64,000 nt of DNA from Alphaproteobacteria bacterium (GTDB lineage Bacteria; Pseudomonadota; Alphaproteobacteria; Rs-D84): assembly GCA_017502865.1 (NCBI GenBank), contig JAFVUD010000005.1:208007-272006 (forward strand), given 5' to 3'. Under the pieces are notes generated by a model that worked only from the letters and a program-made list of their open reading frames with translations, was not told the origin of the DNA and did no database searches. Every line of letters begins with the position of its first letter. Position 1 is the stretch's first letter. Shown here piece by piece: positions 6,821 through 64,000 of this stretch. The translations under genes were made by a program, and so were the position numbers.

Positions 6821-6896
6821 AATTTTATTTCCCTTATCAGGAAAAATGATAACACGGATTTAGCCCCCATGCAACCATGGGACAAAAATATTTATT

Positions 6897-17294: not shown

Positions 17295-20200
17295 ATGCCA
17301 AAACGCACAACAAAACGGGCCAGAAAGTCACACTTTCTGCGTAACGCACTGATTTTACTGGGCATATTTGTGCTGGGCTTTGTCGCATTCTATTCAATTG
17401 GTTCACATCCCAATAAAAATACAACTATTGTAAATTTAACGACCCAGGCCCCAACCCCAATCGAATTTTCCAAACCAGACAATAACGTTTTAATGTCGGC
17501 CAATGGGATTCCAACAATCAACAATAACCGCACATTAACCAAATCTGCCCAATTGGTACTGGATTATGAATGGATTGACGGTCCATACGGCCCATCGTTC
17601 AAGATGGATATCGACGACAAAAATATATCCAATTATGTAAAAATAAAACCTGCCATCCCTGGCAAATGGTCGGTCCGTGGCCACAACACCATCGTATTTA
17701 ATCCAACCGCCCCATGGCCCGCAGATACAAAGTTTTCTGTACATGTTTCACGAAATATTTTTGCAAACGACATTGCACCTGACACACGCCGTGCAACATT
17801 TACCACACCGGCCCCAACCGCCACACTGGCCAGTTTTAACACATATCCCGCCCCCGACACAAAAAAAGCAGTTATTGGGGTCGCTGTTATATCTTTCAAT
17901 TACCCAATCATCACATCTGGATTTGCCGACAGATTAAATGTACGCCTGGACGGCACCAAGACTGATTTTTCTGTTAAATTCGACAAATTCAATCGCACCG
18001 CCATAATCACAACCACGCCAATCACAATAACAGATACGCCACAATCATTACGCATCAAATTAAACCGTACACCAACCGAATTTCCAGACGCATACACACA
18101 AAAAATTACTGGACACACAACAATCGCATCCGCAGATAACTTCTTTAAAATTAATAACATAACCAGCATTATTGCCGACACACCTGATTATAAAACCCAG
18201 CAACTGATTTTAATCGATACAACCGCCCCAATTGCTGCTGACACAGACTGGTCTAAACACATAACCACGTACATATTGCCACAGAAAAAAGACATCAATT
18301 CAGACGCCGATTACCACGATTGGGCGGCCGATGAAATAACCGCCGACGTATTGAAAAAATCTGAAAAGATAACATTAACCCCAACAGATTTTTCGGCCCC
18401 AATCGGCACACACCAATATGCATTGGCATACACATACGGAACCGATGAACGCACCCCACGTTATATTTACGTTGATATTTCACGTGGATTGACATCGGCG
18501 GGCGGCTTTCAAACAACCGCTGGCACAACTGCACTGATGCCGGTCGCATTTCCAAACACATCTGTCCGCATTGTTGGCGATGGGGCCCTGCTGTCTATGT
18601 CAGGGGACAAAAAATTAACATTGGTGGCCCAGGGCGGCGTAAAAACAGTATATGCGAACCTGTACAAAATCAATGCAGACCAAATAAACCACCTGGTATC
18701 CCAGACATACAACCTGTTTGCATCTAATTTAGATTTCAAATCATGGTCATTTGGCACATACGATATGTCGGTTGTATTCCAGAAACGCATTTCATTAACC
18801 CCGACCGATATTTTCACACCAAACTACACATCACTGGACCTGGGGGACTATCTGGACCGCAGCGGCACCGACAAAACAGGAATTTTCATCATCCAAACCG
18901 GAACATCTGAAAACGCCACAGATTTTGCAGACCGTCGCTTGATAATGCTGACCGACCTGGGGATTATTCGCAAAGTTAACAATAATGGCACATCGGCCGT
19001 ATTTGTATCAAACTTTTCAACCGGCACCCCATCTGGCGACACAGAAATCAGTGTTTTGGGTCGCAATGGCAATGCCGTATGGTCTGGCCGAACAGACACA
19101 TCTGGCCACGCCGAAATTCCTGCATTTCCATGGTCTGAATACAAAAACGCACGGGAACCTGTGGCAATTGTAGCCCGCCGTGGAAACGACGTATCTTTCA
19201 TTCCATTCCATGCCGCCTATGCCCAACATATGGACATATCTAAATTTGATACAGACGGTGCATATTCATATTCTAACACCCCATTAAACGCATTTGTATT
19301 TTCAGATCGTGGCATCTATCGCCCTGGCGAAAGCGTTATTATCGGCACAATTGTAAAAAACAAATCATTCAAAACATTGTCTGGTGTACCTGTCCGCCTG
19401 GAAATAGAAGATTCCCGTGGTCACGAATTATTAACAAAAAACATATCATTATCCGCCGATGGCATGTTTGAAACCACATATGAAATCCCCGCATCTGCCA
19501 CATTGGGCGAATACACTGCACGCATATATTCATTAAACGTACGTGAAAAACCACAAGATATGCTGGGCTATACCACATTTCGTGTCCAAGAATTCACACC
19601 CGACACAATGAAAATTTCAGCCCATATCCCAGATACAGAAAACAACGGTTGGATTTTACCAGACAACATAACCGCCAACGTCACCTTACGCAACATGTTC
19701 GGCACACCGGCTGTGAACCGTGAAATTCGTGCAACGGCCACCTTACGCCCAATCAAATACACATTTGATAATTTTGCAAAATATACATTCGGTGACACTA
19801 TATCAAATACCACTATTTCCAACACGGCCGACATTAGCCAACAAACAATCACCATCAAACCAGAAACCGTCATTACAGACGATAATGGCAATGCTGTGAT
19901 TCCTTTAAATTTTGATGGCGACATTCAAAACAACACATATATATTAAACCTGACCGTTAACGGATTCGAAACTGCATCTGGCGATGGCGTTCAAACAACC
20001 ATCACCACCCGTGTATCACCATTTGAATACCTGGTCGGTTATCACCCAGACACCAATCTGGCATACATAAATCGTGATTCCAAACATTCGGTTGATTTAA
20101 TTGCACTGGACAAAAACGCCACCGCAATTGACCTGGCCGATTTACAGATCCAATTGACCCACCGTGAAACAATAACCAGCCTGATAAAAGATTATAATAA

Positions 20201-22982: not shown

Positions 22983-25359
22983 TCCATTCAAAAAATTTTT
23001 CCACCGCCATCGGCGGCTGGTTGTCACATTGGGAATTATTTTTTGCATTTATTTAATAATACGCATATTTTTTACCCCACCCCTGCTCCACGACACACAC
23101 TTTTCCCGTGCATACTATGACCGCAACGGCCAATTATTACGCCTGACCCTGACGGCTGATGACAAATATCGCCTTTACACCCCACTTGACAAAATCAGTC
23201 CTGATTTAATTGCCGCCACCATTTTATACGAAGACAAATATTTTTATTATCACCCCGGCGTAAACCCTGTTTCATTATTTAACGCCACATTAAATTATTT
23301 TTCTGGTGCGCCCCACCCCGCCGGTGCATCAACAATCACAATGCAGACTGCACGATTAAAATATAATCTGGACACCAAAACACCTGTGGGGAAACTGATA
23401 CAAATTGCCGCAGCAATTTATATAGATTTATTCTATTCCAAATCCGAAATTATCGAAGCATACCTGAATCTGGCACCATACGGCGGCAATATCGAAGGCA
23501 TCGCCACCGCATCCCTGATATACTTTGACACACCTGCATCAGATTTGACAAAAATATCTGCCATATCATTATCCACCATTCCCCAAAATCCATCAAAACG
23601 TGGCCTGAACACCCCCAATGGCATAAACAACATATTTAATATGCGTCAAGATTTAGTTAAACGCTGGATTGGCCGCCACCCAACCGACACAGATTTAATC
23701 CAATTGGCGAAAATGCCATTGAATACCCGCCATATATCCGACCTGCCCTTTCTGGCGCCACATTTTACAGACCGCCTGATAAAATCCAGTCCAAATTATT
23801 GGCATGACATCGGTGCCCGCCCATCTGAAATCCGCACAACACTGGATTATTCATTACAGTCCGCCATGACCCACACATTACGTTCCCAGATTTCACGACG
23901 CCACGCATCCGGGGTCCAAAACGCCGCCGCAATACTAGTAAACTATAAAACCATGGAAACATTGGCATACATCGGTTCGACCGATTATCACAATGAAAAA
24001 ATATTCGGCCAAAACGATGGCGTATTCGCAAAACGCAGCCCGGCATCAACCCTGAAACCACTTATCTATGCAATGGCGTGCGATTACGGCCTGATACACC
24101 CAATGACATTACTAAAAGATGCCAAAATCAACTTTGGCGTGTACGCCCCCGAAAACGCAGACAATCGTTTTTACGGCCCTGTCTTGGCCCGTGATGCACT
24201 GACCCATTCCCGCAACATTCCCGCCATCGGCCTGATTCAAAAACTGGGGGCACGAAACTTTTATAACACGTTGAATAAATTCGAAATATCTGGCCTAAAA
24301 TCCCCCGACCATTATGGTATTTCAATTGCACTGGGCGGTGCCGAATTATCTATGTTCGAATTGGCAAACATATATGCAACCATGGCGAACCTGGGGCAAT
24401 TCAAGCGTATAAAATTTGACACATCCACCCCAGACGAAACAATTGACCATATCTTATCTGCCGAAGCTTTCTTTCTAACCCTGGACATGCTGGCATCAAA
24501 CCCACCACCAAAAAACAACATACCATTTGCCACGGCCCAACCAACCCCAAAAATTCAGCACTATTGGAAAACCGGCACATCATCTTCGTACCGTGATGCA
24601 TGGACGGCGGGCATATTTGGCGACTATGTGTTAATTGTATGGGTCGGCAACTTTGACGGCACCCCAAACAACGTTTTCAGTGGTGCCCGCACCGCCGCCC
24701 CAATTTATTTTGCATTGGCCGACACAGTAATAGATTACTTTTCCAACACCGCCACACCCGTACATAACAATGATTTTTTATCCCCCGATATGAATATTGC
24801 CCAACTGGATATGTGTGATACGGTCGGCGGCATTGCAAATGCCCAGTGCCCAAAAACGATAAAATCTTACTTTATCCCCGGCGTATCCCCAATTGACACA
24901 ACCAGCATTTACCGCACCATTCCAATTGACAATGCAACCGGCCTGCGGGCATGCACACGTGATCCAAACACCACCCACATGGAAACATTCGAATTCTGGG
25001 ATGCCGAATTTCTGGATATGTTTGCATCGGCCGGCATAACCCGCAACACCCCACCACCATTTATGCCCAATTGCAACCTGGACGAAATATCAAACGCATC
25101 CAGCGCCCCAATAATCACCCAGCCAATCGCAGATACTAAAACCGTAATAACAAACGATGCCACCGCCACCCCCATTGCGTACCAGGCCATATCCACCAAC
25201 CGCACAGACAAAATCTATTGGTTTCTAAACAGCGATATGATTGGCACCACCATATCCGGCCAGATATTTACCCACCCAACCCCGATGGGCGACCACACAT
25301 TACGCATTGCAACCGAAAGTGGCACCGGCACATCCATAAACTTTACCGTCACAAAATAA
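22966..25359 (+). CDS. pbpC: penicillin-binding protein 1C (bifunctional transglycosylase/transpeptidase)
   Basis: GT51 motif EDKYFYYHPGVNP. Transpeptidase motifs STLK (SPASTLKP), SRN and KTGTS. ATG 22966 overlaps the A2M 3' end by 17 nt; the track start at 22876 is over-extended. Confidence 0.92.
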   Translation: MPNLTSPFKKFFHRHRRLVVTLGIIFCIYLIIRIFFTPPLLHDTHFSRAYYDRNGQLLRLTLTADDKYRLYTPLDKISPDLIAATILYEDKYFYYHPGVNPVSLFNATLNYFSGAPHPAGASTITMQTARLKYNLDTKTPVGKLIQIAAAIYIDLFYSKSEIIEAYLNLAPYGGNIEGIATASLIYFDTPASDLTKISAISLSTIPQNPSKRGLNTPNGINNIFNMRQDLVKRWIGRHPTDTDLIQLAKMPLNTRHISDLPFLAPHFTDRLIKSSPNYWHDIGARPSEIRTTLDYSLQSAMTHTLRSQISRRHASGVQNAAAILVNYKTMETLAYIGSTDYHNEKIFGQNDGVFAKRSPASTLKPLIYAMACDYGLIHPMTLLKDAKINFGVYAPENADNRFYGPVLARDALTHSRNIPAIGLIQKLGARNFYNTLNKFEISGLKSPDHYGISIALGGAELSMFELANIYATMANLGQFKRIKFDTSTPDETIDHILSAEAFFLTLDMLASNPPPKNNIPFATAQPTPKIQHYWKTGTSSSYRDAWTAGIFGDYVLIVWVGNFDGTPNNVFSGARTAAPIYFALADTVIDYFSNTATPVHNNDFLSPDMNIAQLDMCDTVGGIANAQCPKTIKSYFIPGVSPIDTTSIYRTIPIDNATGLRACTRDPNTTHMETFEFWDAEFLDMFASAGITRNTPPPFMPNCNLDEISNASSAPIITQPIADTKTVITNDATATPIAYQAISTNRTDKIYWFLNSDMIGTTISGQIFTHPTPMGDHTLRIATESGTGTSINFTVTK

Positions 25360-25369: not shown

Positions 25370-25454
25370 TGGTGCGACCAGGGGGAATCGAACCCCCAAG
25401 GATTTCTCCACAGCATCCTTAGTGCTGCGCGTCTACCAGTTCCGCCATGATCGC
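25370..25454 (-). tRNA. tRNA-Leu, anticodon AAG (type II, long variable arm)
   Basis: Reverse complement folds as GCGATCA-TG-GCGG-AACTGGTAG-ACGC-G-CAGCA-CTAAGGA-TGCTG-TGGAGAAATCCTT-GGGGG-TTCGATT-CCCCC-TGGTCGC-ACCA. The 5-bp anticodon stem is perfect, with loop C32 T33 A34 A35 G36 G37 A38. The anticodon is at 25418-25420. Confidence 0.9.
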
Positions 25455-25563
25455 AAATCGCAGCCAAAATAAATTTTTCCTAATTCTTGCAAGAACCTGT
25501 TTTTTTTTCAACCATTTTATGATACAATATCGCTTGATAGGAAAAAGGCAAAGGAATTCCAAA

Positions 25564-27063
25564 ATGAAAAAAATATCGAAAATTCTGTTAAATTGTTCAA
25601 TTTTTGCAATGCTGCCTGTGTTTGCAAATGCCGCCGGCACGTATTACAACAGTGGCCTGTATCAATCACCACAAACAACACGTTACAGCCGCCAAACATA
25701 TTCCCAGACCCAACGTTCTGGTGGAATTTCTGCCTATAATCAAAACAGATACGGGACCAGTGGATATACCGCATATGCCAACAATCAAAACCGCAATACC
25801 ACCCAAAATGCCCAGCAACGTGCCCCCCAGAAAAAGGCACCAAACGCAACCCAAACTGGTTTTTCATTGGATGCCGGCATTTCCCACCAAATGGGCAGTT
25901 GGCAATTTGAAATGGCGAACGCTGGTTCAATTCTGCGTTGGGACGATTTGAATTGGAATGTATTTGATGCAAATGGTAAGTATGTATTTAACGCAGGCAA
26001 CACCGCATTACAAATCGGTGCCGGTATTAAATATGGTATGCAATCCGGCGACGCCAGCATGATTGACGATGACATTACAAATAATAGAAACTTTCCTACA
26101 GAACTAATAAATATAGATACAGAAGAAATCATTGGTACAAGATATGGTGCTATATTATCTACGGGAACCGCATCCGATGGCAGTATGTTTGGATACAACA
26201 TCGAATTTGGATTAACCGATTTCTTTAAGTGGGGCAACGCACGCATTACACCCATTATCGGTTGGCGCAGCCTGTCCTATGAAACCGAAACCAGCAAGAA
26301 TTACGGTCTTGGCATGGACTACGTTGATAATGCCAATGGCTGTATAACCCTAGAAGACGGCTCTGTCCAATGCGATCCTTTATTGTTATTATATGTCATG
26401 AACCCTGCTGGCACTTACGACGAGGTCATATTATTACAACGTGACGAGTACGATAACATCGTAATGCCAGACGGTTCCGATGGAAACTACCTAGAACCAG
26501 AAGGTTCATACTATTTCTATCAACCTGGGGTCAGCCACTCTTACGAAGTTGAATGGGCGGGGCCATACCTGGCATTGGATATGTCATATTTAATCAACCA
26601 ATACAACCAAATCAGCGGTCGTATCGAATTGGGTCTGCCATCATACAGCGTAACCGCCAATCAACCAGGTAGATATGAACTTCAACATCCAAAATCTGTC
26701 GAAGATGAAGGCGGCATTGGCGATGCATTCCACTTTGGCTTGGGTGCCAATTGGTCAACCGCCATCACAGACAAGGTTGCATTATCAATCGGTTTGACAT
26801 ATGATTACTACACCGTCAGCGATGCCACCGCAAAAACATATGTAAACTCAGGTTATTATACATCGGCATATGACCAAATGCTGGCTGACTTAAAAGGAGC
26901 GGGCTATACAGAAGAACAAATAAACAGCATCCCACAAGTTATTGACTTGAAAGACTATATCGATTTAATGTCTGCCCAGGGCTGGACCTATACCGATGAA
27001 AAAGAAATTGAATCTGTGTTCAAATCTATGGGTATTCGTGTTGGCATAAACGCACGATTCTAA
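25564..27063 (+). CDS. outer-membrane beta-barrel protein with Q/N/T-rich N-terminal region; possibly omptin-like
   Basis: ATG 25564 gives MKKISKILLNCSIFAMLPVFANA. The C-terminus ...GIRVGINARF carries the OMP signature. Segments SILRWDDLNW...IGAGIKYGMQSGDASMIDDDI and EVEWAGPYLALDMSY resemble omptin blocks as I recall them. Confidence 0.6.
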   Translation: MKKISKILLNCSIFAMLPVFANAAGTYYNSGLYQSPQTTRYSRQTYSQTQRSGGISAYNQNRYGTSGYTAYANNQNRNTTQNAQQRAPQKKAPNATQTGFSLDAGISHQMGSWQFEMANAGSILRWDDLNWNVFDANGKYVFNAGNTALQIGAGIKYGMQSGDASMIDDDITNNRNFPTELINIDTEEIIGTRYGAILSTGTASDGSMFGYNIEFGLTDFFKWGNARITPIIGWRSLSYETETSKNYGLGMDYVDNANGCITLEDGSVQCDPLLLLYVMNPAGTYDEVILLQRDEYDNIVMPDGSDGNYLEPEGSYYFYQPGVSHSYEVEWAGPYLALDMSYLINQYNQISGRIELGLPSYSVTANQPGRYELQHPKSVEDEGGIGDAFHFGLGANWSTAITDKVALSIGLTYDYYTVSDATAKTYVNSGYYTSAYDQMLADLKGAGYTEEQINSIPQVIDLKDYIDLMSAQGWTYTDEKEIESVFKSMGIRVGINARF

Positions 27064-27074
27064 GGGTTTAATAT

Positions 27075-27698
27075 ATGAAAACAACACGAAATTTATTCAC
27101 CATTGTTGCACTTTGTGCCGGCCTGATTGGGTCGGCATTTGGTGCAAATGGTATGTCTGGAACCGCATCTGTTAATATCACCAGTGACACTGCCGCCACG
27201 GCAAAAAACATCGCCATGTCGGATGCACGTCGTCAAATCATCGGTGACGTTTTACGCCAATATACCGACAATGCACAATTAAATCCTGTCTTGAAAAACG
27301 CATCGGGCTCTGAATTAACCAACCTGATATCGGCGTCCAGCATTGAAAACGAACAGACATCTGACACAACATATTCTGCAAATATTTCAATGACAATCGA
27401 CACCAACGCCGCCCGCACATGGCTGGATTCAAACCATGTAAAACACTGGCTGCCCGGTGGCGAAGTTGCCGTTTCAACATTCAACACAACCATTACATTA
27501 AAAAATGGTTTATCTGAATGGATTGAATTAAATCGTATTGCCCGCAATGAACAGATAAACTTCATTACAAAAAATATACATGGCAACAAAATCGTAATTG
27601 AAATTCCATCATCTAAACGTGGTGCATTTACAATTGCGGTTCGTGAATCTGGATGGCGTTATAAAAACGACAACAACGATTTACAGATATGGAAATAA
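27075..27698 (+). CDS. secreted hypothetical protein
   Basis: Signal peptide MKTTRNLFTIVALCAGLIGSAFGA. It begins 11 nt after the preceding OMP gene, so it is probably co-transcribed. Confidence 0.6.
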   Translation: MKTTRNLFTIVALCAGLIGSAFGANGMSGTASVNITSDTAATAKNIAMSDARRQIIGDVLRQYTDNAQLNPVLKNASGSELTNLISASSIENEQTSDTTYSANISMTIDTNAARTWLDSNHVKHWLPGGEVAVSTFNTTITLKNGLSEWIELNRIARNEQINFITKNIHGNKIVIEIPSSKRGAFTIAVRESGWRYKNDNNDLQIWK

Positions 27699-27782
27699 CC
27701 CCATAAATCTGGGAATATAATCTTGACATTTTTTTGTTTTGCGATACTGTATCGCCGAACACAAAATCACAGGGAGAAAGTT

Positions 27783-28649
27783 TTGAAAAAATCATCATTA
27801 TTACTGCTGTGCGCATTATTACCAACCACATCATTCGCAGATGAAAGTTTGACATTATCAATTCGCCGCATTGGTCTGGAATTATCTAAGACCCAGGTTC
27901 GTCACGCGGACCAGTACCAGGATTCACCAATATCGGCCTTGAACGCAGATAACCAAGATTTTATCAAGGGTGTATTTGATACCGCACTGGAATATAAACA
28001 CGGCCGCCTGCAATGGGACAACAGCCTGTTTATGGAATACGGCGAAACAACATTGAAACCATATGACGAACCCGAAACCGTCAGTGAAAATGCAGACGAC
28101 ATTTTGTTGTCCAGTAATTTAGAATACGGTTGCTGGGAAACATCTGGATTTAAATTCGGTCCAACCGTCCGTGCCGCATACGACACAGAATTTGTTGCAT
28201 CCGACGATGCCCCACGCCAGAACGTTGTGCGTGCGAACGCCGGTCTTTCACTGTTCGATAACGCCGTTATCAAAAGTTTATATTTAACCGGTGTGTATGA
28301 ATACGATTTCACATACTCGGACGAACAGGTATCCAAACTGGCGGCTGAATTGGGCTGGCGCCTGGAATACGAGGTTCGCGATGGTGTAAAATTCTCGTCC
28401 AATGGGTATTATCGTGAATATCTAAGTTATTCCCAGTATGTCCCAACCGACCTGGAACGCGATTTAAGTGCCGTTATCCGCATGGACACAAATCTGTGGG
28501 GCGATATGACAATGGGCCCATATGCCCAGTACCGCCGTGCCAAGGCCCGTGGTGCCGATGTCTATGCCAGCAACTTTATAATCGGCATATCATTTAATTA
28601 CATCACAAAATTCGGTCTGATTGACAATAAATCAACCACAGCCGAATAA
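27783..28649 (+). CDS. putative outer-membrane beta-barrel protein
   Basis: TTG 27783 behind an AGGGAG SD gives (M)KKSSLLLLCALLPTTSFA. Alternating beta-strand pattern throughout. The track start at 27723 coincides with a TTGACA -35 box. Confidence 0.55.
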   Translation: MKKSSLLLLCALLPTTSFADESLTLSIRRIGLELSKTQVRHADQYQDSPISALNADNQDFIKGVFDTALEYKHGRLQWDNSLFMEYGETTLKPYDEPETVSENADDILLSSNLEYGCWETSGFKFGPTVRAAYDTEFVASDDAPRQNVVRANAGLSLFDNAVIKSLYLTGVYEYDFTYSDEQVSKLAAELGWRLEYEVRDGVKFSSNGYYREYLSYSQYVPTDLERDLSAVIRMDTNLWGDMTMGPYAQYRRAKARGADVYASNFIIGISFNYITKFGLIDNKSTTAE

Positions 28650-28651
28650 TG

Positions 28652-28681
28652 AAAAAATGCCGACAAAAAAGTCGGCATTTT
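28652..28681 (+). terminator. intrinsic terminator
   Basis: AAAAAATGCCGAC-AAAAAA-GTCGGCATTTT. Confidence 0.7.
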
Positions 28682-28748
28682 CATTACAAAAAAATTATTT
28701 TCCACTTGCCCGGCACTGCGTTTTTTTGCTAGCATTTCATATACAGGA

Positions 28749-31700
28749 ATGAAAGGGATTTTTCTATTTTTATCATTATTGGTTGCACCGCTGGGCTTTC
28801 TGCACAGTGCGGCGGCTGATGATGCAGCCGATATTGCCCGTGCTGCAACCCGCCGTGGTACAACCAATACAGTGACAAACACCCGCAAAAAAACTGAAAA
28901 TTCACCCCTGAAAAATTCACACAGCACAAACACTGTTTCACGTTCTACAAACGTCACACCACAAACAAATAATTCACTGCGTGAACGAAATGTTGGCAAC
29001 CGTTCTGGCAACGTGATATCTGGCACAGACCGCAGCACATCAACAGACACCAAAAAGCCCAGCGTAACCGCACGCAGTGGCACAAACATTGCCCCACGTG
29101 CAACCACTGCACGCACCGCCACACCGGCAAAACAAACCATTCGTACACAATCACAAACATCCATGCGTGCAACACCACGTACCAACAACCGTGGCACCAT
29201 TGCCCGTGCCGCAACCGAAGCAGCCACCGCCGCACGTGAAAAAATTATGTCTGCGAAATACACAGATTGTCGTACAGTTTATTATGATTGCATGGACGAA
29301 TTCTGTGCCAACAAAGACAGCCTGCTGAAACGCTGTGCATGTTCGGCCCGCACGAATGAATTTACCGGTGTTCAAAAACAATTAACCCAGGCCGAAGAAA
29401 AATTATTGGATTTTGGTGAACGCTTGCTAACCGTCAACCTAGAAGCCGAAGATGCCACCGCCATGTTCAACGCAACAGCCGGCGAATTGGCATTTCAAAA
29501 GCCAGACACCACAACATCTAAAAAAATCTTGGATGAAATTGCCGAAAAACTAAACACAAAAATCGACAATTCCACATTTGACAGAACACTTTCACCAATA
29601 TCTTTGTCATTAAACGAAGATGCCGCCTGGGACAGTGTTGATTCCCTGCAGGGGGCTTCAACAACACTAAAATCTGGCACCGAATTATATGCAGCCGCCC
29701 TGCCGATATGTCGTGAAATGGCATTGGAAATCTGCACCCCAGATGAACTGGACATAATCGAAAGCGGTTATCAAATGGCAATCGAACAAGATTGCAACAC
29801 CGTTGCCAAATCATACGTCAACCAAACCGATGCCGCACGTGAAAAAATCCGTGAATCCAGCGCATTGCTTGACATGGCCCGTCTGGACATTTACCAGAAA
29901 CGCAATTCCGACGACATTTTAACATGTAAAACAAAAATGCTGGACATGTTAACCAATACATCTGTATGTGGCGAAAATTTGGGCAAATGCCTGGACACAA
30001 CGGGCCAGTATATCGACCCATCAACGGGTGAAGCATTCTTGACCATGAATCTAGGGAATTTGGCACATTTAATCACACGTCCAACCGGGAACCAGACATG
30101 GACAAACGCCCCCGGCAATGCAAAATTTGTATCATACCTGTATTCGAAAAAACAATACCTGGAACCTGCTATGGAAAATTGCCAGGATGTTGCCGATTAC
30201 GTATGGGACAACTTTATCGAAGACGCCCTGGCCCAGATTAAATTGGCCCAGGACGCCAAACTAGAAGAAGTCCGCCAAAGCTGCACAACCCTGACCACCC
30301 AGTGTTTATCAGACACCGCAAAATCATTGGCCGACTTTGATGCCCGTGCTTTATCTACATTCGGTGTGGCGGCCGATAAAACCGTCAACGCCATGTGTGC
30401 CGACGTTCAAAACGCATGTACCGCCCTGTTACAGGAAACCGGTGGTGGCGATGGCGACTGGGTTGGTGGTATGACAGAAATTGCAACCGACACCACATAC
30501 GAAACACTGCGACAAACCTGTCGCGAGGTTGGACGTGCCTGCATTATCCAGGCCTGCACATCAATTTCTGGCAACTTTGGTCTGTGTGAAAACATCGACA
30601 CATCCATTAACCGCAAGGCTATTATTAACCGCACATCCTGCTGGAACGAGGTATTATCCTGTGTTAAATCCGCTGGCACAGATTCCATTGACAATATCAT
30701 AACCCTGTTGGGCAACCGCGGCAGCATCAAACTGAACGACGGTGCAATTGACACCAAGTCATTCTATTCTAACCTGTATGGATCTTTACCAGAACCATAT
30801 ATTTCAGACATCGGCAATCGAGGCGACTGTGAAAAAACAGAAAACAAAAACTGTGTGTACGACATCTGCTACAGCGATTGCAACACCCAACCAACATCAT
30901 TTGAATGTCGTTCTTGCCGTATCGCAGAACAAATCTGGGGCAATTGCGAGGTTGCACCAACAACCACCCTGTCAACCAAAGAGAAAGATGACAAAGGCAA
31001 CCTAAAAATGTATCACAACCGTATCAAGGCCCCCGTTGGCAAAGATGCAACTACATTGCTGTATTGGTTTGCAGTAAACACCGGCACCAATTTGCGTGAC
31101 GATGCATGCCGTGATACAACCTGTGGACCAGGCTTTATCCCATACGAAGTCAACGGCATCATCACCTGTCAGCCATCTAACAGTGTCGACGATTCCGGTG
31201 CCTTTTGCCCCAAGAATGCAGATGGTGACATGCCAACATATTCTGTTAATGGTGTTAATCTGTGCTGTCCCCTGGGAACAGATTCATATTCCAATTGCTG
31301 CAACGGTACCCCGGATGATATCGATGACACCAATGCCACCACAAACCTGTGCTATATGAGTAACAAAAACAACACCTATACATTAACCTTTGATATTGCC
31401 AACACCCAAAATTACTATTTCGATGGTACGCACTATTTAATATGTTTTGGTGGCAGCGTTAACACCGATAAAGAATACTTCGAATGCAATGGCAATTGGG
31501 TGATTGTATCAGCAACAAATGGTCATTATTACACACCAAAATTAACCAATAGTAACGATGAAACAATTATAAACACCCGCCTGATTACCGAAACATTCCA
31601 TGCTGCCAGTACGACAGACAGCAACGGTATTGAACAACCTGGAATCCAATACACATACCAGAAATCCACAGACACAACCAACGGCACCTGGAAAGATGCC

Positions 31701-31757
31701 AACGGGAACACTGTCGACGAACCTGACAATTGGATGGTAACAATCAACGCAAACTGA
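28749..31757 (+). CDS. giant Cys-rich secreted protein, CMDxFC family paralog 1 (1002 aa)
   Basis: Signal peptide MKGIFLFLSLLVAPLGFLHSAAA, then a basic T/R/N/S-rich low-complexity spacer of about 150 aa. The signature CRTVYYDCMDEFCANKDSLLKRCACS follows. Dozens of Cys residues are spaced through helical segments. Confidence 0.75.
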   Translation: MKGIFLFLSLLVAPLGFLHSAAADDAADIARAATRRGTTNTVTNTRKKTENSPLKNSHSTNTVSRSTNVTPQTNNSLRERNVGNRSGNVISGTDRSTSTDTKKPSVTARSGTNIAPRATTARTATPAKQTIRTQSQTSMRATPRTNNRGTIARAATEAATAAREKIMSAKYTDCRTVYYDCMDEFCANKDSLLKRCACSARTNEFTGVQKQLTQAEEKLLDFGERLLTVNLEAEDATAMFNATAGELAFQKPDTTTSKKILDEIAEKLNTKIDNSTFDRTLSPISLSLNEDAAWDSVDSLQGASTTLKSGTELYAAALPICREMALEICTPDELDIIESGYQMAIEQDCNTVAKSYVNQTDAAREKIRESSALLDMARLDIYQKRNSDDILTCKTKMLDMLTNTSVCGENLGKCLDTTGQYIDPSTGEAFLTMNLGNLAHLITRPTGNQTWTNAPGNAKFVSYLYSKKQYLEPAMENCQDVADYVWDNFIEDALAQIKLAQDAKLEEVRQSCTTLTTQCLSDTAKSLADFDARALSTFGVAADKTVNAMCADVQNACTALLQETGGGDGDWVGGMTEIATDTTYETLRQTCREVGRACIIQACTSISGNFGLCENIDTSINRKAIINRTSCWNEVLSCVKSAGTDSIDNIITLLGNRGSIKLNDGAIDTKSFYSNLYGSLPEPYISDIGNRGDCEKTENKNCVYDICYSDCNTQPTSFECRSCRIAEQIWGNCEVAPTTTLSTKEKDDKGNLKMYHNRIKAPVGKDATTLLYWFAVNTGTNLRDDACRDTTCGPGFIPYEVNGIITCQPSNSVDDSGAFCPKNADGDMPTYSVNGVNLCCPLGTDSYSNCCNGTPDDIDDTNATTNLCYMSNKNNTYTLTFDIANTQNYYFDGTHYLICFGGSVNTDKEYFECNGNWVIVSATNGHYYTPKLTNSNDETIINTRLITETFHAASTTDSNGIEQPGIQYTYQKSTDTTNGTWKDANGNTVDEPDNWMVTINAN

Positions 31758-31776: not shown

Positions 31777-32919
31777 ATGAAAAAAATATTTATTGCATCT
31801 TTACTGCTGTTATCCATTTCTGGCAAATATTCATTCGCCGCTGTAAATCCTGTAACATGTACAAACACCGTATCAAGTGATGCATGCAACACCATAGAAG
31901 GCTGCGGCTGGAAAGCAACCGATGAAGCCGGCGGCGGGAAATGTACCCCCTGTACTCAAGGGTGGTATGGTGCCGGCTGCACAGAACAATGTCCCGAATC
32001 TCACCCAACCACAATTGGCAATGGTGCACAAGTAAAAACCGAATGTGTTTTTATCTGCCAAGAAGAAGAAATTACCGACAATAACGGTAACCCGATGGGA
32101 AAAAAAACCCCAAAACAAGAACATATACCGTTCATTAATTCCGACGAAACCCCATCGTGCGAATATACAATCAGTTGTTATGGCATAGCCCCCCCAGATC
32201 ACACACACCCATGCACAACATATCACCTGGGCCAGGACGAACAAACATGTGAACCCGATTATAAAATAGCTTCTTATAACAATAACCGGCCCGGCACCGG
32301 CGGCTATGGTGACCAGTGTAACAAGTATTTTATGGTATATGAAAATAACCGCTACACACCCATATCATGCACAGAATGCGTTGCTGGCAACCACCTAAAC
32401 CCAACAGCAATCACCGACTACTGTGGCATTCCTACTGGCAACAAATGTGATGCAAACTCTATTTCATGCGACCCACTGGGGAATCCCGGCAGTTTAACCA
32501 ACTGTGAATATATAGAAAATACAAAAGAAAACAAATACACATGGGATGCCGACAAACAATCGTACGATTACAGTGCATGTACAAAAAAATGCAAAGTTAA
32601 AGAAGGCCGAAACACAAACGAATATATATTCAGTTATAATGGTAATGAATGGGTCAAAGGCGATTCCACAGGGAGCACAGAATGCGATACTGGATCTTGT
32701 CTGATGCCAGGCGAAACAGCGTGTGATGCCGCTGACTATGGATATTATGCAGTCCAAAAACAAAACAACTGTAAACCATGTCCAGGCGGAACAACCACTG
32801 ATAAAAAAGGTGCAACATCTGTAGACGACTGCGTAATAACAAACGCAACCAAATTCTGTGACAAAAAGGGCTGTTTTACCCTGCCAATCAATGACGATGT
32901 CACAATAGACTATTTCTAG
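31777..32919 (+). CDS. Cys-rich secreted protein with eukaryote-like CxxCPxG repeats
   Basis: Signal peptide MKKIFIASLLLLSISGKYSFA. Motifs CTPCTQGWYGAGCTEQCP and CKPCPGGTTTDKKGATSVDDC (ephrin-receptor-like/GCC2_GCC3-type pattern). Ends in ...TIDYF, 19 nt downstream of the previous gene. Confidence 0.7.
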   Translation: MKKIFIASLLLLSISGKYSFAAVNPVTCTNTVSSDACNTIEGCGWKATDEAGGGKCTPCTQGWYGAGCTEQCPESHPTTIGNGAQVKTECVFICQEEEITDNNGNPMGKKTPKQEHIPFINSDETPSCEYTISCYGIAPPDHTHPCTTYHLGQDEQTCEPDYKIASYNNNRPGTGGYGDQCNKYFMVYENNRYTPISCTECVAGNHLNPTAITDYCGIPTGNKCDANSISCDPLGNPGSLTNCEYIENTKENKYTWDADKQSYDYSACTKKCKVKEGRNTNEYIFSYNGNEWVKGDSTGSTECDTGSCLMPGETACDAADYGYYAVQKQNNCKPCPGGTTTDKKGATSVDDCVITNATKFCDKKGCFTLPINDDVTIDYF

Positions 32920-53802: not shown

Positions 53803-54624
53803 TTATTTCAAAGCTTCCAAAATCTGATCTGCTGGAACTGCACCTGGGAATGCCTGTTCGTTCACGATCAAGAATGGTGTACCAGAAATATCGAATTCGC
53901 GTGCCATGTCACGAACGTTTTTCATTTCACGTGCGACAACTTCGCCCTTCATGTCTTTTTTCAGTGTTTCCACATCCAGACCAATTTCTTTTGCGAATTC
54001 CAGGACTTTCTTTTCAACTTTTTCACCCAATTTAGCCTGGTCTTTCATGTCATCACGTGAATAGTAATCACGTGTCATCAACATATCAACCAATGCGGAT
54101 GCTTTTTCTGGGTTCTGCAATTTTGCAGCGATTGTTGCCTTGGCTGGTGCATCAGACAATGGGCCATGGATAGAAAAGTTTTTGATAACAACACGAACAT
54201 CATCACGTTCGGCCATTACACGATCCAATTCACCATGTACACGACGGCAGTATGGGCATGAAAAGTCTGTCCAAACATAGATTGTGTTTTTGGCTTCTGC
54301 ATTACCCATAACTGGGGCATCTGCAATCAATGTGTCTGCGTTTGCACGAACATGTTTACGGATTTTTTTGTTCTTTTCCGCATTCTGCTGTTCCTGCATG
54401 CTTTCAACCATTTCCTGCAAGATTGCTGGGTTAACAGATGTCAAATAATATGGTGTGTACAAACGGCATACCGCACCCATCATCAACAAAACAGCAACCA
54501 ATTTGATTACTTTTTTGCCAATCATTGCACCTGATGTTGGCTTTTTAGCATCGACCTTGACCAGTTTACCACCGAACATGAACAATGCAATCGCCAGTAC
54601 TAATACTAAGATTGTCCAAATCAT
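53803..54624 (-). CDS. membrane-anchored DsbA-family thiol:disulfide oxidoreductase
   Basis: N-terminal TM helices and a thioredoxin fold with the active site DFSCPYCRR (CPYC). Confidence 0.85.
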   Translation of the reverse strand: MIWTILVLVLAIALFMFGGKLVKVDAKKPTSGAMIGKKVIKLVAVLLMMGAVCRLYTPYYLTSVNPAILQEMVESMQEQQNAEKNKKIRKHVRANADTLIADAPVMGNAEAKNTIYVWTDFSCPYCRRVHGELDRVMAERDDVRVVIKNFSIHGPLSDAPAKATIAAKLQNPEKASALVDMLMTRDYYSRDDMKDQAKLGEKVEKKVLEFAKEIGLDVETLKKDMKGEVVAREMKNVRDMAREFDISGTPFLIVNEQAFPGAVPADQILEALK

Positions 54625-59390: not shown

Positions 59391-61928
59391 TTACAGTGGA
59401 ATATCTTCACATTTTTCGACCGGATCAGACGATGTACATTCCATTGTCTTGCTGGCCCCAATGCCCAAGAATCCACTTTTCTGTTTTACTTTACAACTTT
59501 GTGTAATTGTGCTGGTACAGAAATGGCAATTACGTGTTTCGCGGTTAAACATAGACCACACTTCACGGGTCGAGCCTCCACCTTCAAACTTGAACTTGTT
59601 CGAACCAAAGGATCCTGCCCCCAGATGAACACCTGCACTACCAAAGTCACCCGACATTTTACCAAATTCTGTCATAGACTTTCCACCAGCCATCAATTTA
59701 TCTGATGTCAGCCCAGCACCAACATCATACGAAATTGCATACGGTGGTGCCAATGGTGTATCAACTTCGGTATTTGTTGAACCCGACAATTCACCATTTG
59801 TTGCCGCCAATTTATGACACATATACTGTGCGATATCCGCAGATGCATCCTTGGATGCTTCAAACACAGCATCATTAAATTTCTTGTTATAATTATTCTG
59901 GGCCTGACGCAGGGCCGAAACCGCAATCTGCATCTTAACCTGGTTCAACAGATTTGGGAAACGTGCCTTGGTCTTTTGACCACGTTTACCAGTAATCTGG
60001 GACAAATCACGACCATTGACACAGAACTGAATTTCTGGGTCCTGTTCAATCATTTCAATTGTACGATTGATTGTACCAGTAATATTATTCAATTCTTCTT
60101 CGATTGTCGCAATAATCGAATCCTTGTTCGGGACATCTTTGTTCGTTTCACGAATCTTGGCCAAATATCCCTGAATTCCCAATTCACCCGGTCCCAGTTT
60201 GTATTCTTCACCGGCGGCATCAACATCCATTGTACGACCCGACGCATCACCCATTTTAATAGACCCAAATGAAATCATACCCGACACACGATAGATTGTG
60301 CCATCTTTCTGGGAACGCAACGACCCGGCCCCAATTGTATCATCGGCGGCAAATCTGTTGCAGTCTGTGGTACTGCCACAAACTTCTTCCATTTTGGCAT
60401 TGACCAGATTCTGGCACTGTTCCATGGCGGCATTATCAATATTCAAATACAGCCCCATCAGCATTGAATCCAAATCATCAATCGAGAAATTTGGGTTATT
60501 TGCCTTGCACACTACCAAACTGTCAACTGGGCAAATTTCATGGATATAGTCATAATCCATACCAATACAGTTTTCAAAGTTTTCACCACAACGTGTATCT
60601 GCGGTAAAGCAATCTTTTACTTCTTGGGTACAGGCATCGACACGCATCGCCGCCAATTTATCAACAACATACCCCCAAATCAGTGGTTCCATGCGTTCAC
60701 AGCGGTCAATTTCCACTTTACAGAAACTGCGTGCCATATCTGGACGTGATAAACACGCATCCATTGTATCAACACCCTTGCCGGCAATATCGTCTTTACA
60801 TGCTGTCTGGATACAGTCTGAAATATCTGTCAAACATGATTGACGCATCTTGGATTCTGCGTTTGCTTCGGCCATTTTGATTGTTGGGGCGGCTTCTCGC
60901 AAGAAATCTGGCCACACCATGTCACGCACCGCCATACATTGGTTCAAAACCTTTTCACAGATATTACGTTTTGATTCCAATATTTCCATTGTCGATGCCG
61001 TGATATCATATTTATCAACGGTTTTAACCTTGGTCCCTGCAGTGCTTGTGGCGGCCTGGTTCTGCATATTTTCAGACGCAATAATTGAAACACAGTTTCC
61101 CCAATCTTCGCCACAGGCATCTTCGGTCTGCATACACTTTTTAAATTCAACCATACATGTTCCACGGTCAAATTTATTGGCTTCGTTAAAACTGTCTTTT
61201 AATGCAGAACGCACTTCGGTTTCTGCATCCAACATAGCCACTTCTGCTTCACCAGATTTGGTTTCAATCAAATTTTCATACGCTTTGCAGTCTGACAAAA
61301 TTTGACGTGAATACATCTGCTTTAACAGATTCAAATCTTTTTCACACTTATCTGGAATCTGGGCCAAACAAACTTCCTGGGCGGCACTGTGCAATATATC
61401 GCCTGTCATATCTGCAATATCTGTCACAGCCCCTTCTTCATCATCTTCGTCATAGACATTTGAATCAAACAACGCCATTAAATCTTGACGTTTTTGTGTT
61501 TTTTCTTCATCTTCGGTATTTACATCAACCTTGATTACATTGCCATCTTTGTCGTATTTACGTTCCCCACCAAAGATAATATCTGCATCTGCCCCGGCCC
61601 TAACCTTTTCGACTTCAATTGTTTTGATACGTTCTGCCTCGACCAGGGTTTCTTTGATTTTTTCAAATTCTTGGTCCAGTGCAATGGATTTATCACTGCA
61701 CCCACAACTGCCACCGTTGGCATTATCTGTGATACAGAACTGGTCCATACATCCATAATATAAATCATAACATTCCTGGTCATACAGACCGGTTGTTTCT
61801 GCCTTGGTACGAACCTTGGTCCCCTTTTGCACTGCCGATTGTTTGGTTGTACGTGCCGCTGCTGCGAACGCATCAACATTATACGCACACAGACACAGCA
61901 CCGAACATAACGCAACCCATTTTTTCAT
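59391..61928 (-). CDS. giant Cys-rich secreted protein, CMDxFC family paralog 2 (845 aa)
   Basis: Signal peptide MKKWVALCSVLCLCAYNVDAFA. Signature CYDLYYGCMDQFCITDNANGGSCGCS. Collinear Cys blocks with paralogs 1 and 3. C-terminal box RNCHFC...CEDIPL. Confidence 0.75.
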   Translation of the reverse strand: MKKWVALCSVLCLCAYNVDAFAAAARTTKQSAVQKGTKVRTKAETTGLYDQECYDLYYGCMDQFCITDNANGGSCGCSDKSIALDQEFEKIKETLVEAERIKTIEVEKVRAGADADIIFGGERKYDKDGNVIKVDVNTEDEEKTQKRQDLMALFDSNVYDEDDEEGAVTDIADMTGDILHSAAQEVCLAQIPDKCEKDLNLLKQMYSRQILSDCKAYENLIETKSGEAEVAMLDAETEVRSALKDSFNEANKFDRGTCMVEFKKCMQTEDACGEDWGNCVSIIASENMQNQAATSTAGTKVKTVDKYDITASTMEILESKRNICEKVLNQCMAVRDMVWPDFLREAAPTIKMAEANAESKMRQSCLTDISDCIQTACKDDIAGKGVDTMDACLSRPDMARSFCKVEIDRCERMEPLIWGYVVDKLAAMRVDACTQEVKDCFTADTRCGENFENCIGMDYDYIHEICPVDSLVVCKANNPNFSIDDLDSMLMGLYLNIDNAAMEQCQNLVNAKMEEVCGSTTDCNRFAADDTIGAGSLRSQKDGTIYRVSGMISFGSIKMGDASGRTMDVDAAGEEYKLGPGELGIQGYLAKIRETNKDVPNKDSIIATIEEELNNITGTINRTIEMIEQDPEIQFCVNGRDLSQITGKRGQKTKARFPNLLNQVKMQIAVSALRQAQNNYNKKFNDAVFEASKDASADIAQYMCHKLAATNGELSGSTNTEVDTPLAPPYAISYDVGAGLTSDKLMAGGKSMTEFGKMSGDFGSAGVHLGAGSFGSNKFKFEGGGSTREVWSMFNRETRNCHFCTSTITQSCKVKQKSGFLGIGASKTMECTSSDPVEKCEDIPL

Positions 61929-61956: not shown

Positions 61957-64000
61957 TTACATATTTATATCTTCGCAACTTTCAATTTCCTGGCAGAATT
62001 CTTCCTTGCCTGATGCCATCATACCCATGATACCACCACCAATCATACCAACAACACCACCAATTGCAGTTCCCCAACCCGGTGTCACCATTGTACCAGC
62101 CGATGCCCCCGCTGATAATCCACCTGCGGCACCCTTGGCAAAACCTGCACCCTTGGATTCACCACCTGTTTCGCAAACCTGTTGCATACGGCACACATGG
62201 CAATTACGCAAATCTGGTTCAAAATGCACACTGCGGATATAACTATAGTTCTTATCAGATTCATCCGGTTTTTCTACTTTATATGTGTTATAGCAGTTCT
62301 GTTTTGCCTGTTCCAAATCCTGTTTACGTGACAGTTCGGCAATTTTCATTTCCAACGCACGCAATGCACGATTTTCCGCACCAATTTCTGCAATCATCTT
62401 TGCAGAATTGAATACGCTGTCCCCCAGACTTTTGCGACCTGCTGGCTTTTTACTGTCCATACATGCCGCAACCGTGATATCTTTTTCAAACTGCTTAAAG
62501 AAATCTGCCACTGCTGTCTTGGAATTATTACGCACTGTTGCACGCAATGCGACCAAGCCTTCTTCGGTGTCTGGGATATCCAGCAAAGATTCCACCGTGG
62601 AATCAGATGGCAAACATGCCATATCTGTACCACAAACCTTGCCCAGTTGTTCGCCAAAATAGTTTACACAGCCCTGCAACAATTGATAATCCATCTGCAA
62701 CATAACAGCCTGGACAATAATATCAAACTGTGTTTCATTTTTGCATGACGGATACATAGATTGTGGACACAGTTCTACAATCTCAGATGTCTTTTTGCCG
62801 ACACATTCTGGTGCATTAAAGTTTTCACCACATTTATCACGCAAACATTTATCAATATCATTTTGACAGAATTGTGTACGCAAGAATCCCAACTTATCAT
62901 TCACAACTGTCTTAATACCTGGAATCATGGCTTCACATTCATCAATAATTGGGCAAACACCCGCCGCAACATTAACGTCTGTCAAACACGCAGAATTAGT
63001 CGATGTTGAACACCCATCTTCTAAACAGGTCTGAATCCGTGCCAAACATGTCTGGCGACGATATTTGTCTGCATATTGTGCTGCATCAACCAAAATTGCC
63101 TGCGATTCCGCTTCCCAGTCGGTCAACACATATGAACGCACCGCCATACACTGGTCCAGAACATTTTCACATGCATTTGCACGACGGCCCAACAAATCCG
63201 CATCCAAACAGTTTTCAAAGTTTGCACCACATCCACCCTTGTCTGCGATACAGGCTTTATACGCCAACAAACATTCACCACGATTATATTTGTTGGTTGT
63301 ATCCAGCATTTCTAAACGTGCCTTACGCACAGCCGCTTCGGCCGTACGTTTATTCGCCTGGGCATTAATCTTTTGATCTGACAAATATGATTCAAACGAT
63401 TTACAATCTGCAATCACCTGACGCAGATACAGCATTTCTTCCATATCCGCCTTGGAACTGCACGAATCCAATTCCGACGCACAGAATTCAGATGCCATCG
63501 CATACAAACCATCACCAATATCTGCGTCTGCACCCAACGATTCGTCATCATCAACCGAACCATTCAACCATTCTGAAAAACTTAACCCCGACGCACGCGA
63601 ACTCTTCTTGGCCGCTTCACTTTCGCCAAAGACCAACTTTGCCTTGGCCCCTAACTGTTCACGTTCAACACCTTCGGTATATAATTTATCTGCTTCTTCC
63701 TGGATTTTTTGAATTTCCAAAATCAAATCTTTGGACTGATTGATATTAGACGAACAGGCACAACGATAGCCTTCGGATTCATCCAGCAGACAGAATTCAT
63801 CCATACATGCACGATACGCCTCGCGACAATCTTTCTTTTCGACCGGTGTATCATCCGCACCTGAATCACCATTACCAGAATCATCACCTGAATTTCCAGA
63901 ATCATTACCTGAATTATCATTACCACCCGACGGCTTTTGCGAAACATTCACATCCGCAGACGGCGTATTAACCACCTTGTTCACGGCGGCATTAACACTC
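61957..64000 (-). CDS. giant Cys-rich protein, CMDxFC family paralog 3; 5' end probably beyond the right edge
   Basis: The frame is open to position 64000 (track start 63984 is a GTG, and no signal peptide has appeared yet). Signature CREAYRACMDEFCLLDESEGYRCACS. C-terminal RNCHVC...glycine-zipper hydrophobic segment...CEDINM. Confidence 0.72.
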   Translation of the reverse strand, partial: SVNAAVNKVVNTPSADVNVSQKPSGGNDNSGNDSGNSGDDSGNGDSGADDTPVEKKDCREAYRACMDEFCLLDESEGYRCACSSNINQSKDLILEIQKIQEEADKLYTEGVEREQLGAKAKLVFGESEAAKKSSRASGLSFSEWLNGSVDDDESLGADADIGDGLYAMASEFCASELDSCSSKADMEEMLYLRQVIADCKSFESYLSDQKINAQANKRTAEAAVRKARLEMLDTTNKYNRGECLLAYKACIADKGGCGANFENCLDADLLGRRANACENVLDQCMAVRSYVLTDWEAESQAILVDAAQYADKYRRQTCLARIQTCLEDGCSTSTNSACLTDVNVAAGVCPIIDECEAMIPGIKTVVNDKLGFLRTQFCQNDIDKCLRDKCGENFNAPECVGKKTSEIVELCPQSMYPSCKNETQFDIIVQAVMLQMDYQLLQGCVNYFGEQLGKVCGTDMACLPSDSTVESLLDIPDTEEGLVALRATVRNNSKTAVADFFKQFEKDITVAACMDSKKPAGRKSLGDSVFNSAKMIAEIGAENRALRALEMKIAELSRKQDLEQAKQNCYNTYKVEKPDESDKNYSYIRSVHFEPDLRNCHVCRMQQVCETGGESKGAGFAKGAAGGLSAGASAGTMVTPGWGTAIGGVVGMIGGGIMGMMASGKEEFCQEIESCEDINM

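Follow-up and report, generated by a model that had tools for sequence, protein, structure and literature searches.

The 64-kb window analysed here (64,000 nucleotides of contig JAFVUD010000005.1, assembly GCA_017502865.1) comes from Candidatus Enterousia, an uncultured gut lineage of the Alphaproteobacteria (order Rs-D84), and carries at 28749–31757 the gene studied in this work, hereafter called the target, which encodes a cysteine-rich protein predicted to be exported. Enterousia falls within the GTDB order Rs-D84; its genomes measure 0.75–1.0 Mb and are without most biosynthesis and respiration, respiratory chains being reportedly missing (PMC12306168). Dependence on partner cells has been predicted for this lineage, with obligate symbiosis or parasitism on other cells proposed, and MreB/RodA are present (PMC12306168). 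The window is ordinary chromosome, with rpsB, tsf, tyrS, polA, pth, rplI, clpB, recO, RNase E/G and three tRNA genes, and it also encodes PBP1C, a protein of peptidoglycan synthesis. The features of the target, its paralogs and the associated genes are listed in Table 1.

Table 1. Features of the target gene, its window paralogs and associated genes (positions in the 64-kb window; aa, amino acids; ORF, open reading frame)
Feature	Position	Strand	Description
Target gene	28749..31757	+	intact ORF, 1002 aa, 40 Cys; type-A family member
Predicted Sec-type signal peptide	28749..28814	+	aa 1–22; MKG, hydrophobic core, HSA/AAA cleavage-type motif; read from sequence
Basic T/A/R/N/S low-complexity spacer	28815..29243	+	aa 23–165; net charge +16; bracketed by ARAAT motifs
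Predicted all-helical Cys core	29244..30728	+	aa 166–660; 22 Cys; acidic, net charge -27; common to all paralogs
N-terminal signature	29268..29345	+	CRTVYYDCMDEFCANKDSLLKRCACS; C174...S199
Putative twin C-x6-C helical hairpin	30282..30419	+	C512-x6-C519-x30-C550-x6-C557; pairing inferred from Cys spacing
Second module	30519..30662	+	C591-x6-C598-x4-C603-x9-C613 ... C631-x6-C638; Cys spacing of the signature again
Fast-evolving Cys-rich, beta-rich C-terminal region	30729..31754	+	aa 661–1002; 18 Cys
Downstream companion gene	31777..32919	+	380-aa secreted protein, 30 Cys; 19 nt past target stop
Promoter-like site	28621..28650	+	TTGACA-18-AATAAT (11/12); consensus match only; overlaps DUF3078 gene end
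Palindromic hairpin	28653..28682		12-bp stem; between DUF3078 stop (28649) and target start
Membrane-anchored DsbA-like oxidoreductase	53803..54624	-	Pfam DSBA 1.2e-19; two N-terminal hydrophobic segments; FSCPYCRR
Paralog 2 (type B)	59391..61928	-	845 aa, 36 Cys in mature protein; C-terminus ...EKCEDIPL
Paralog 3 (type B)	61957..64000	-	cut by window end, 723 aa in full; C-terminus ...SCEDINM

The MKG...A-x-A pattern of the predicted signal peptide is kept in 36 target orthologs. Tat export was rejected, as the RR motif comes after the hydrophobic core and not before it, and so was lipoprotein anchoring, since no lipobox is conserved in the signal peptide of any paralog. A basic spacer of about 150 residues and a Cys-rich C-terminal part had been described in the first-pass annotation of this DNA, which was made from the letters alone, and both are real. 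The composition of the spacer is T 21%, A 14%, R 13%, N 10% and S 10%. It is predicted to be disordered, with a confidence score (predicted local distance difference test, pLDDT) below 35 in the full-length AlphaFold2 (AF2) model, and its periodic Arg residues are conserved despite 32% identity among orthologs. In the same model, pLDDT is mostly 70–90 for roughly aa 580–930, with blocks at 53–92.

The target had been grouped with the two minus-strand ORFs at 59391 and 61957 (paralogs 2 and 3), and BLASTP bears out the paralogy: the target matches the first at 2e-22 over 388 aa and the second at 3e-12, while these two match each other at 3e-55. Paralogs 3 and 2 are adjacent, 28 nt apart with paralog 3 upstream, an arrangement found also in other strains and reflected in consecutive NCBI locus tags in several metagenome-assembled genomes (MAGs). 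The full length of paralog 3 (723 aa, with a signal peptide) is known from a 100%-identical database protein, P0241. A fourth paralog, seen in longer contigs, lies beyond the window end, across infA from paralog 3 (L081:6943-9501, minus strand). It has 852 aa and an odd number of cysteines (33); its signature reads CRDAYFTCMDQFCAVQNETYRRCVCS, and, like the target, it has a basic spacer, here of T/R/S/A type. Next to it in sister strain L081 are a gene for a 234-aa secreted protein with 9 Cys (6242-6946, minus strand), which follows it, and, nearby, an autotransporter gene. Two types can be distinguished: the target and paralog 4 form type A (27% identity over 552 aa, 5e-50), whereas paralogs 2 and 3 form type B (28% identity, 1.5e-54) and share a ...N-C-H-x-C...C-E-D-I-x-[ML] C-terminus. 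Binding of c-type haem was rejected, since no CxxCH is present and the conserved type-B motif is N-C-H-x-C. Near its C-terminus paralog 3 also has a glycine-zipper-like hydrophobic segment, which matches Pfam Gly-zipper_Omp at E = 0.1 only. In agreement with the secretion proposed at first reading, signal-peptide-like N-termini can be read in all four paralogs.

The three signature strings quoted in the first-pass annotation are exact, and a six-frame scan of the 64 kb finds CMDxFC only at those three places. The three window paralogs have C-x6-C-M-D-x-F-C-x9-C-x-C; with the fourth included, the signature following the signal peptide is C-x6-C-[ML]-D-x-[FL]-C-x7-11-C-x-C. It cannot be put down to chance: of 154 diverse family representatives, 128 have C-x6-C-x4-C-x7-11-C-x-C, 109 of these with MD[ESQA]F in the middle, and the 26 representatives without it may be N-terminally truncated fragments. 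As to the three downstream blocks said to be common to all three proteins, the first two are, and the third, N[IA]CExVL[ND]QCMAVR, is found only in both minus-strand paralogs; at its position the target has a single Cys (C478). The Cys spacing of the signature, C-x6-C-x4-C-x9-C, occurs again inside the target at aa 591–613 (CREVGRACIIQACTSISGNFGLC), and related C-x6-C-x6-C-x6-C modules occur 3–4 times in the paralogs. The signature is thus one instance of a recurring module and not a unique N-terminal mark.

We then asked how large the family is and whether it resembles anything known. A profile made from the three window paralogs and their orthologs was searched exhaustively through 1.84 billion representatives at 50% identity; 961 proteins passed E ≤ 1e-3, of which 782 also passed 1e-10 and 552 passed 1e-30. 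Among 90%-identity clusters, relatives at E ≤ 1e-3 number more than 900 for each window paralog, and they have no Pfam domain and no name other than 'hypothetical protein'. With one genome scanned per GTDB species, 275 genomes proved to encode a relative, and full-length orthologs of the target are 46–97% identical. The target can therefore not be called a founding member, as had been proposed, since relatives, all labelled hypothetical, are already on public record in at least 961 clusters at 50% identity and in 275 species-level genomes; 'giant' is likewise overstated for proteins of 720–1000 aa. Genome names and synteny were taken from the best 80 of the 275 genomes. These 80 are all gut MAGs, labelled Candidatus Enterousia, 'Alphaproteobacteria bacterium', 'Rickettsiales bacterium' or, unspecifically, 'Proteobacteria/Pseudomonadota', with a few evident mis-binnings. 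When ten lower-ranked listed matches were looked up, four had an organism name, in each case an Alphaproteobacteria or Rickettsiales MAG. The family is large and, as far as sampled, apparently restricted to the Rs-D84 clade.

That the family is unrecognised by curated resources did hold, no Pfam or NCBIfam entry matching any of the three window paralogs. With Pfam-A 2025, NCBIfam 20.0 and PHROGs v4, the target gave no Pfam match at E ≤ 1 and the paralogs nothing above any cut-off; over 23 family members, no Pfam family was matched by more than two, and PHROGs returned only glycine-rich-segment noise on paralog 3. In a search of PDB sequences (hmmsearch), the best E value was 0.48 for the A1 profile, and the A3 profile had no match at E ≤ 1. 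Foldseek comparison of the full-length AF2 model (36 orthologs, pLDDT 57.7, core poorly resolved) reached a best E of 0.9 against PDB. A second model, of the core only, was made from a 145-sequence alignment of three subfamilies (pLDDT 77.7, predicted TM-score 0.49), and its best matches were at E = 2.9 in PDB and 0.36 in BFVD. Profile and structure comparison thus gave no significant match among PDB sequences or PDB and BFVD structures, and the core fold, as modelled, is without detectable relative in these two structure collections. No family relative was found in IMG/VR; with this, a PHROG match only to the glycine-rich segment, and a syntenic chromosomal context, a phage or mobile-element origin was rejected. 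Among the papers searched, none ties Rs-D84 or Enterousia to cysteine-rich proteins, and none refers to the present family. The family is new and uncurated. Its general kind is a familiar one, that of helical, disulfide-rich proteins exported to the envelope or surface in a host-associated bacterium.

The core model is all-alpha, with helices of 40–55 residues. About 21 core cysteines are kept in 124–137 of the 137 full-length representatives (mutually more than 50% different) where the column is occupied. They are C174, C181, C186, C196, C198, C321, C329, C349, C393, C407 and C414 in the first part, and C478, C512, C519, C550, C557, C591, C598, C613, C631 and C638 in the second, C603 being confined to one subfamily. 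The cysteine skeleton is near-invariant across diverse representatives. Counts in the mature proteins are overwhelmingly even: 51 of the 57 orthologs of the target (mode 42), 115 of the 117 paralog-2 orthologs (36) and 112 of the 114 paralog-3 orthologs (36), as well as 75 of 89 diverse representatives. A bias towards even numbers of cysteines is a classical sign of fully disulfide-paired proteins. The parity observed is as expected if all cysteines were paired, and gives no positive sign of free thiols for cross-linking.

The C-x6-C cysteines are mostly located within or at the ends of predicted helices, and a '6, ~30, 6' spacing suggests twin C-x6-C helix hairpins at C512-C519/C550-C557 and C591-C598/C631-C638. 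When modules were compared by hhalign, cysteines were in register both between the N-terminal signature module and the 591–646 module (E = 0.016, probability 2.8%) and between the 580–646 and 500–566 modules (E = 0.028, probability 2–3%). Since these scores are weak, we report a recurring Cys-spacing pattern and not proven repeats; the pattern is suggestive of internal duplication of Cys modules. One could also imagine metal-binding or redox-buffering proteins, in which the cysteines serve as ligands or as a thiol reservoir instead of forming structural disulfides. The high Cys content and the CxC and CC doublets of the target would fit such a function. However, the cysteines are mostly i/i+7 on predicted helices and the CxxC/CxC doublets are not accompanied by His, while the even parity, the export signals and a link of the family to a DsbA oxidase also argue against it, so that we consider this explanation very improbable.

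This link involves a membrane-anchored CPYC DsbA-like protein which had already been picked out at first reading and is indeed encoded in the window (Table 1), about 5 kb from the paralog 2/3 pair. The family also occurs in a distant lineage (JGI metagenome 3300010049), whose member P0444 is 37% identical to paralog 2. There, a 19-kb stretch includes a par4-like gene beside infA, a tandem pair of par2-like genes with an ortholog of the window DsbA immediately after it, and a par3-like gene ending SCEDVNM. DsbA thus lies near family members in two distant lineages, which indicates that their physical linkage is old. The window DsbA is a candidate oxidase for the family.

Conservation is very unevenly distributed along the target. 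Median identity among 35 orthologs is 36% for aa 1–22, 32% for 23–165, 72% for 166–660, 39% for 661–780 and 23% for 781–1002. Calibration on the same genomes gave 72.6% for PolA, 66.5% for Pth and 62% for PBP1C, showing that the core is as constrained as housekeeping proteins. We further compared the window with the closest strain (L086), at synonymous divergence (dS) of 0.05–0.09 by the Nei-Gojobori method. The ratio of nonsynonymous to synonymous rates (dN/dS) was 0.01 in the core (1 change in 495 codons), 0.06 in the signal peptide and spacer (aa 1–165) and 0.15 in aa 661–780. In aa 781–1002 it rose to 0.95, with 21 changes in 222 codons plus indels, both alleles having 40 Cys. Values for neighbouring genes were 0.08 for p207 (a 207-aa secreted protein), 0.02 for the DUF3078 gene, 0.09 for Pth and 0 for omp183, whereas the 380-aa gene downstream of the target reached 1.35, with 51 amino-acid changes at a dS of 0.056 and all 30 Cys kept. 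Paralogs 2 and 3 differ from their counterparts in a sister strain by 0 and 1 amino-acid changes, respectively. In three contigs of very close strains (L081-L083), paralog 3 is identical to the window copy or one residue different.

The comparison was extended to nine other close ortholog pairs, where dN/dS of the core is 0.03–0.07. For the last 220 aa it is 0.05–0.42 (median 0.26) in the eight computable pairs, dS being saturated in the ninth. The C-terminal value is 3.7–6.5 times that of the core in seven of these eight and only about 1.7 times in one. The contrast between core and C-terminal rates is robust, and may stem either from positive selection or from relaxed constraint combined with recombination. 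In the closest pairs (L001/L014, L004/L005 and others), dS of aa 661–1002 is also 2–5 times that of the core, which points to recombinational exchange, and suggests that C-terminal alleles of the target may be replaced in this way.

The fast-evolving gene immediately downstream, here called the companion, is probably co-transcribed with the target, and its product matches Pfam Ephrin_rec_like (2.8e-6). A Cys-rich ORF, mostly of 330–540 aa with 4–9% Cys and usually too diverged for tblastn, occupies this position in about two thirds of related loci, often with one to three ORFs of about 145 aa ahead of it; the remaining third have nothing there. The window companion ends in ...VTIDYF, an aromatic C-terminus like the beta-signal of outer-membrane proteins.

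A disordered N-terminus, long helices and a variable C-terminus recall the colicin layout, and the target could be taken for a secreted toxin, bacteriocin or effector whose C-terminal 'warhead' varies and for which small downstream ORFs would be immunity genes. Many related loci have ORFs of about 145 aa separating the target from the Cys-rich companion, and these would suit this role, and colicin Ia is among the non-significant Foldseek matches (E = 3.2). However, the window has no small ORF between the two genes. Orthologs have homologous C-terminal domains that keep the same Cys skeleton, and no swapping for unrelated domains is seen; moreover, the target is a single-copy core gene, syntenic in about 70 of the 80 related genomes. 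With a Sec signal peptide and 40 Cys, which are unlike colicins, and no toxin domain detected in Pfam or NCBIfam, a toxin seems to us quite unlikely.

Two interpretations had been offered in the first-pass annotation, an adhesin set and a disulfide-cross-linked envelope layer conceptually like the chlamydial cysteine-rich outer-membrane complex. The first is backed, indirectly, for the target, whose C-terminal domain evolves fast on a fixed Cys scaffold as does the product of the next gene. Paralogs 2 and 3 show extreme conservation and do not resemble variable adhesins. The second would mean, in its general form, a periplasmic or outer-membrane-associated cross-linked lattice stiffening the envelope from inside. 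Such a lattice would agree with the extreme conservation of the core and of the type-B proteins, with the lack of any known outer-membrane translocation signal, with the outer-membrane-protein genes nearby (Pom-like, DUF3078, OmpA), and with the glycine-zipper-like segment of paralog 3, as in outer-membrane lipoproteins (subject to the poor Pfam score given above). As a counterpart of the chlamydial complex it found no support: no OmcA/OmcB homology was found with Pfam or NCBIfam, the Pom-like neighbour is not Cys-rich, and PBP1C in the window and MreB/RodA in the lineage (PMC12306168) leave no obvious need for a peptidoglycan substitute. Even parity in about 85–98% of members also gives no sign of spare thiols, although symmetric intermolecular bonds are conceivable. 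Finally, a strictly periplasmic protein would not be expected to contain a domain whose dN/dS approaches 1 and which shows signs of recombination, and the variable tip would be left unexplained. We therefore regard a cross-linked layer as a distinctly less probable but possible reading, especially for the type-B proteins, the toxin-like and metal-binding readings being weaker still.

From the paralogy, the size and range of the family, the conservation and parity of its cysteines, the helical prediction, the DsbA linkage and the rate contrast, we infer a model that extends to export, disulfide pairing, assembly, surface exposure and function. In this model, which we favour with moderate confidence, the target is a lineage-specific, exported and oxidatively folded rod-like envelope or surface protein whose stalk is conserved and whose exposed tip varies. 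Sec would export the protein by means of the cleavable signal peptide. The core (aa 166–660) would then fold into long alpha-helices pinned by about 11 intramolecular disulfides, introduced by the co-localised membrane-anchored DsbA, with the recurring C-x6-C pairs on helix faces forming twin C-x6-C hairpins. A genome would have four or more paralogs, which fall into two architectures. In type A, to which the target and paralog 4 belong, the core would stand between the basic disordered spacer and a variable, Cys-rich domain at the C-terminus. In type B, the adjacent minus-strand pair, there would be the core, extra Cys modules and the conserved ...C-E-D-I-x-M tail, one member possibly with its glycine-zipper-like segment in the membrane. 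The conserved cores and the type-B proteins could form a fixed envelope-associated scaffold, while the fast-evolving C-terminal domain of the target and the hypervariable companion would face outside, where they may contact partner or host cells or be targeted by phage or immune pressure.

Several points weigh against this model. The dN/dS of about 1 comes from one close strain pair; elsewhere the values of 0.05–0.42 could be explained by relaxed constraint. The disulfide pairing is deduced from Cys spacing. No autotransporter, lipobox or other known surface-sorting signal was found in these proteins, so that the whole protein could stay periplasmic; in particular, Pfam gave no Autotransporter match (C-terminal beta-barrel translocator) in the paralogs, while it readily detected a separate autotransporter gene of the same genome. 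Lastly, neither DsbB nor VKOR turned up in the sequence examined, and respiratory chains are reportedly missing from the lineage, which leaves no evident means of re-oxidising DsbA. The stalk-and-tip model could be taken further, and the four paralogs and the hypervariable companion might assemble into a novel disulfide-stabilised apparatus specific to Rs-D84, with a membrane-associated type-B base and type-A stalks with variable tips, for attaching to and exploiting host or partner cells. We consider this a speculative and rather unlikely extension.

Comparison with known systems shows partial likenesses only. In the Helicobacter Hcp family (Sel1-like repeats), exported alpha-helical units are pinned by disulfides. 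Hcp proteins likewise have a regular short Cys-Cys spacing recurring along the chain and belong to host-associated bacteria. In contrast, the present proteins gave no Sel1/SLR Pfam match at E ≤ 0.5 in 23 members, have predicted helices of 40–55 residues versus about 15, and are 3–4 times larger with extra non-helical domains; their C-x6-C mostly lies inside or at the ends of predicted helices and must therefore pair with another helix, not across a turn. The twin Cx9C/Cx3C CHCH proteins of the mitochondrial intermembrane space provide another parallel, in which two Cys along one side of a helix face two others on an antiparallel helix, as we propose here, and with folding in an oxidising compartment by a dedicated oxidase. 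The spacing here is nevertheless x6 and not x9 or x3, there is no sequence similarity, and the proteins are bacterial, of about 1000 aa and with many modules. The chlamydial OmcB/OmcA/MOMP complex shares Cys-rich envelope proteins, a reduced-genome host-dependent Gram-negative organism and, given the Pom-family porin gene nearby, a porin; it differs by the lack of homology, the all-alpha core, even Cys parity, the presence of peptidoglycan machinery and a porin neighbour that is not Cys-rich. With Giardia variant-specific surface proteins, the C-terminal domain of the target and the 380-aa protein with its related Ephrin_rec_like module have in common a fixed Cys scaffold with fast-changing residues between. 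Unlike these, the target has no CXXC-repeat core and no C-terminal transmembrane anchor, its helical core is highly conserved, and it is a single-copy syntenic gene and not part of a large switching repertoire.

Enterousia/Rs-D84 is widespread in human, livestock, rodent and bird guts, possibly also in insect guts, and is thought to live off other cells (PMC12306168). The four paralogs fill about 10 kb of a sub-1-Mb genome. Core conservation similar to that of PolA, the DsbA linkage and the one diversifying domain single these proteins out as prime candidates for a part in the lineage's envelope or contact machinery. With their putative function, they are a promising entry point into how this uncultured and widespread gut lineage lives, and the family can be cleanly defined. 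The helical core, having no PDB or BFVD relative, is a target for structure determination, and the family profile is a clade marker, diagnostic as far as sampled. Should these be ordinary periplasmic structural proteins instead, the result would be a useful family definition and little more.

The common gene order around the target is alpha-2-macroglobulin, PBP1C / DUF3078, p207, Pom (on the opposite strand) / target / variable region / pth, omp183, polA. In the window, the block of Pom-like porin, p207 and DUF3078 genes (25447-28649, plus strand) is inverted relative to about 70 related genomes: elsewhere it is transcribed away from the target, here it reads in the same direction. The hairpin downstream of DUF3078 (Table 1) is likely a terminator of these upstream outer-membrane-protein genes, setting them apart from the target. 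An operon with them was rejected, as they are on the opposite strand in about 70 genomes and the hairpin lies between in the window; no operon is conserved. Further upstream, a bacterial alpha-2-macroglobulin gene (1895 aa) is followed by that of PBP1C (17295-25359, plus strand), a pair kept in related loci. These two form a known periplasmic 'defence' gene pair, retained here despite a genome below 1 Mb.

Downstream of paralog 2, between it and RNase E/G, the window has an MscS-family channel gene (58498-59343, minus strand). No gene is called at this position in the three contigs of strains L081-L083, where a mere 80 nt or so separate paralog 2 from RNase E/G. The position after the DsbA gene also differs: in L081 it is occupied by a repeat protein of more than 750 aa (19919-22172, plus strand) with units of about 23–25 aa, '...C.GLTG.IPE.LF.GI.G.P...MF..TF', resembling BspA-type leucine-rich repeats, while the window has tRNA-Leu and DUF4301 instead, indicating a local rearrangement. 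A locally GC-rich stretch at 46000-48211 (0.53 vs about 0.44) takes in the gene of another secreted protein, of 449 aa with 15 Cys and without a Pfam match (46862-48211, minus strand); beside it is that of a 198-aa secreted protein with 9 Cys (45833-46429, minus strand). Near the start of the window, a gene for a Fic/DOC-domain protein is directly followed by one for an APH/choline-kinase-like phosphotransferase (2862-4516, plus strand), and the two may be a functional pair.

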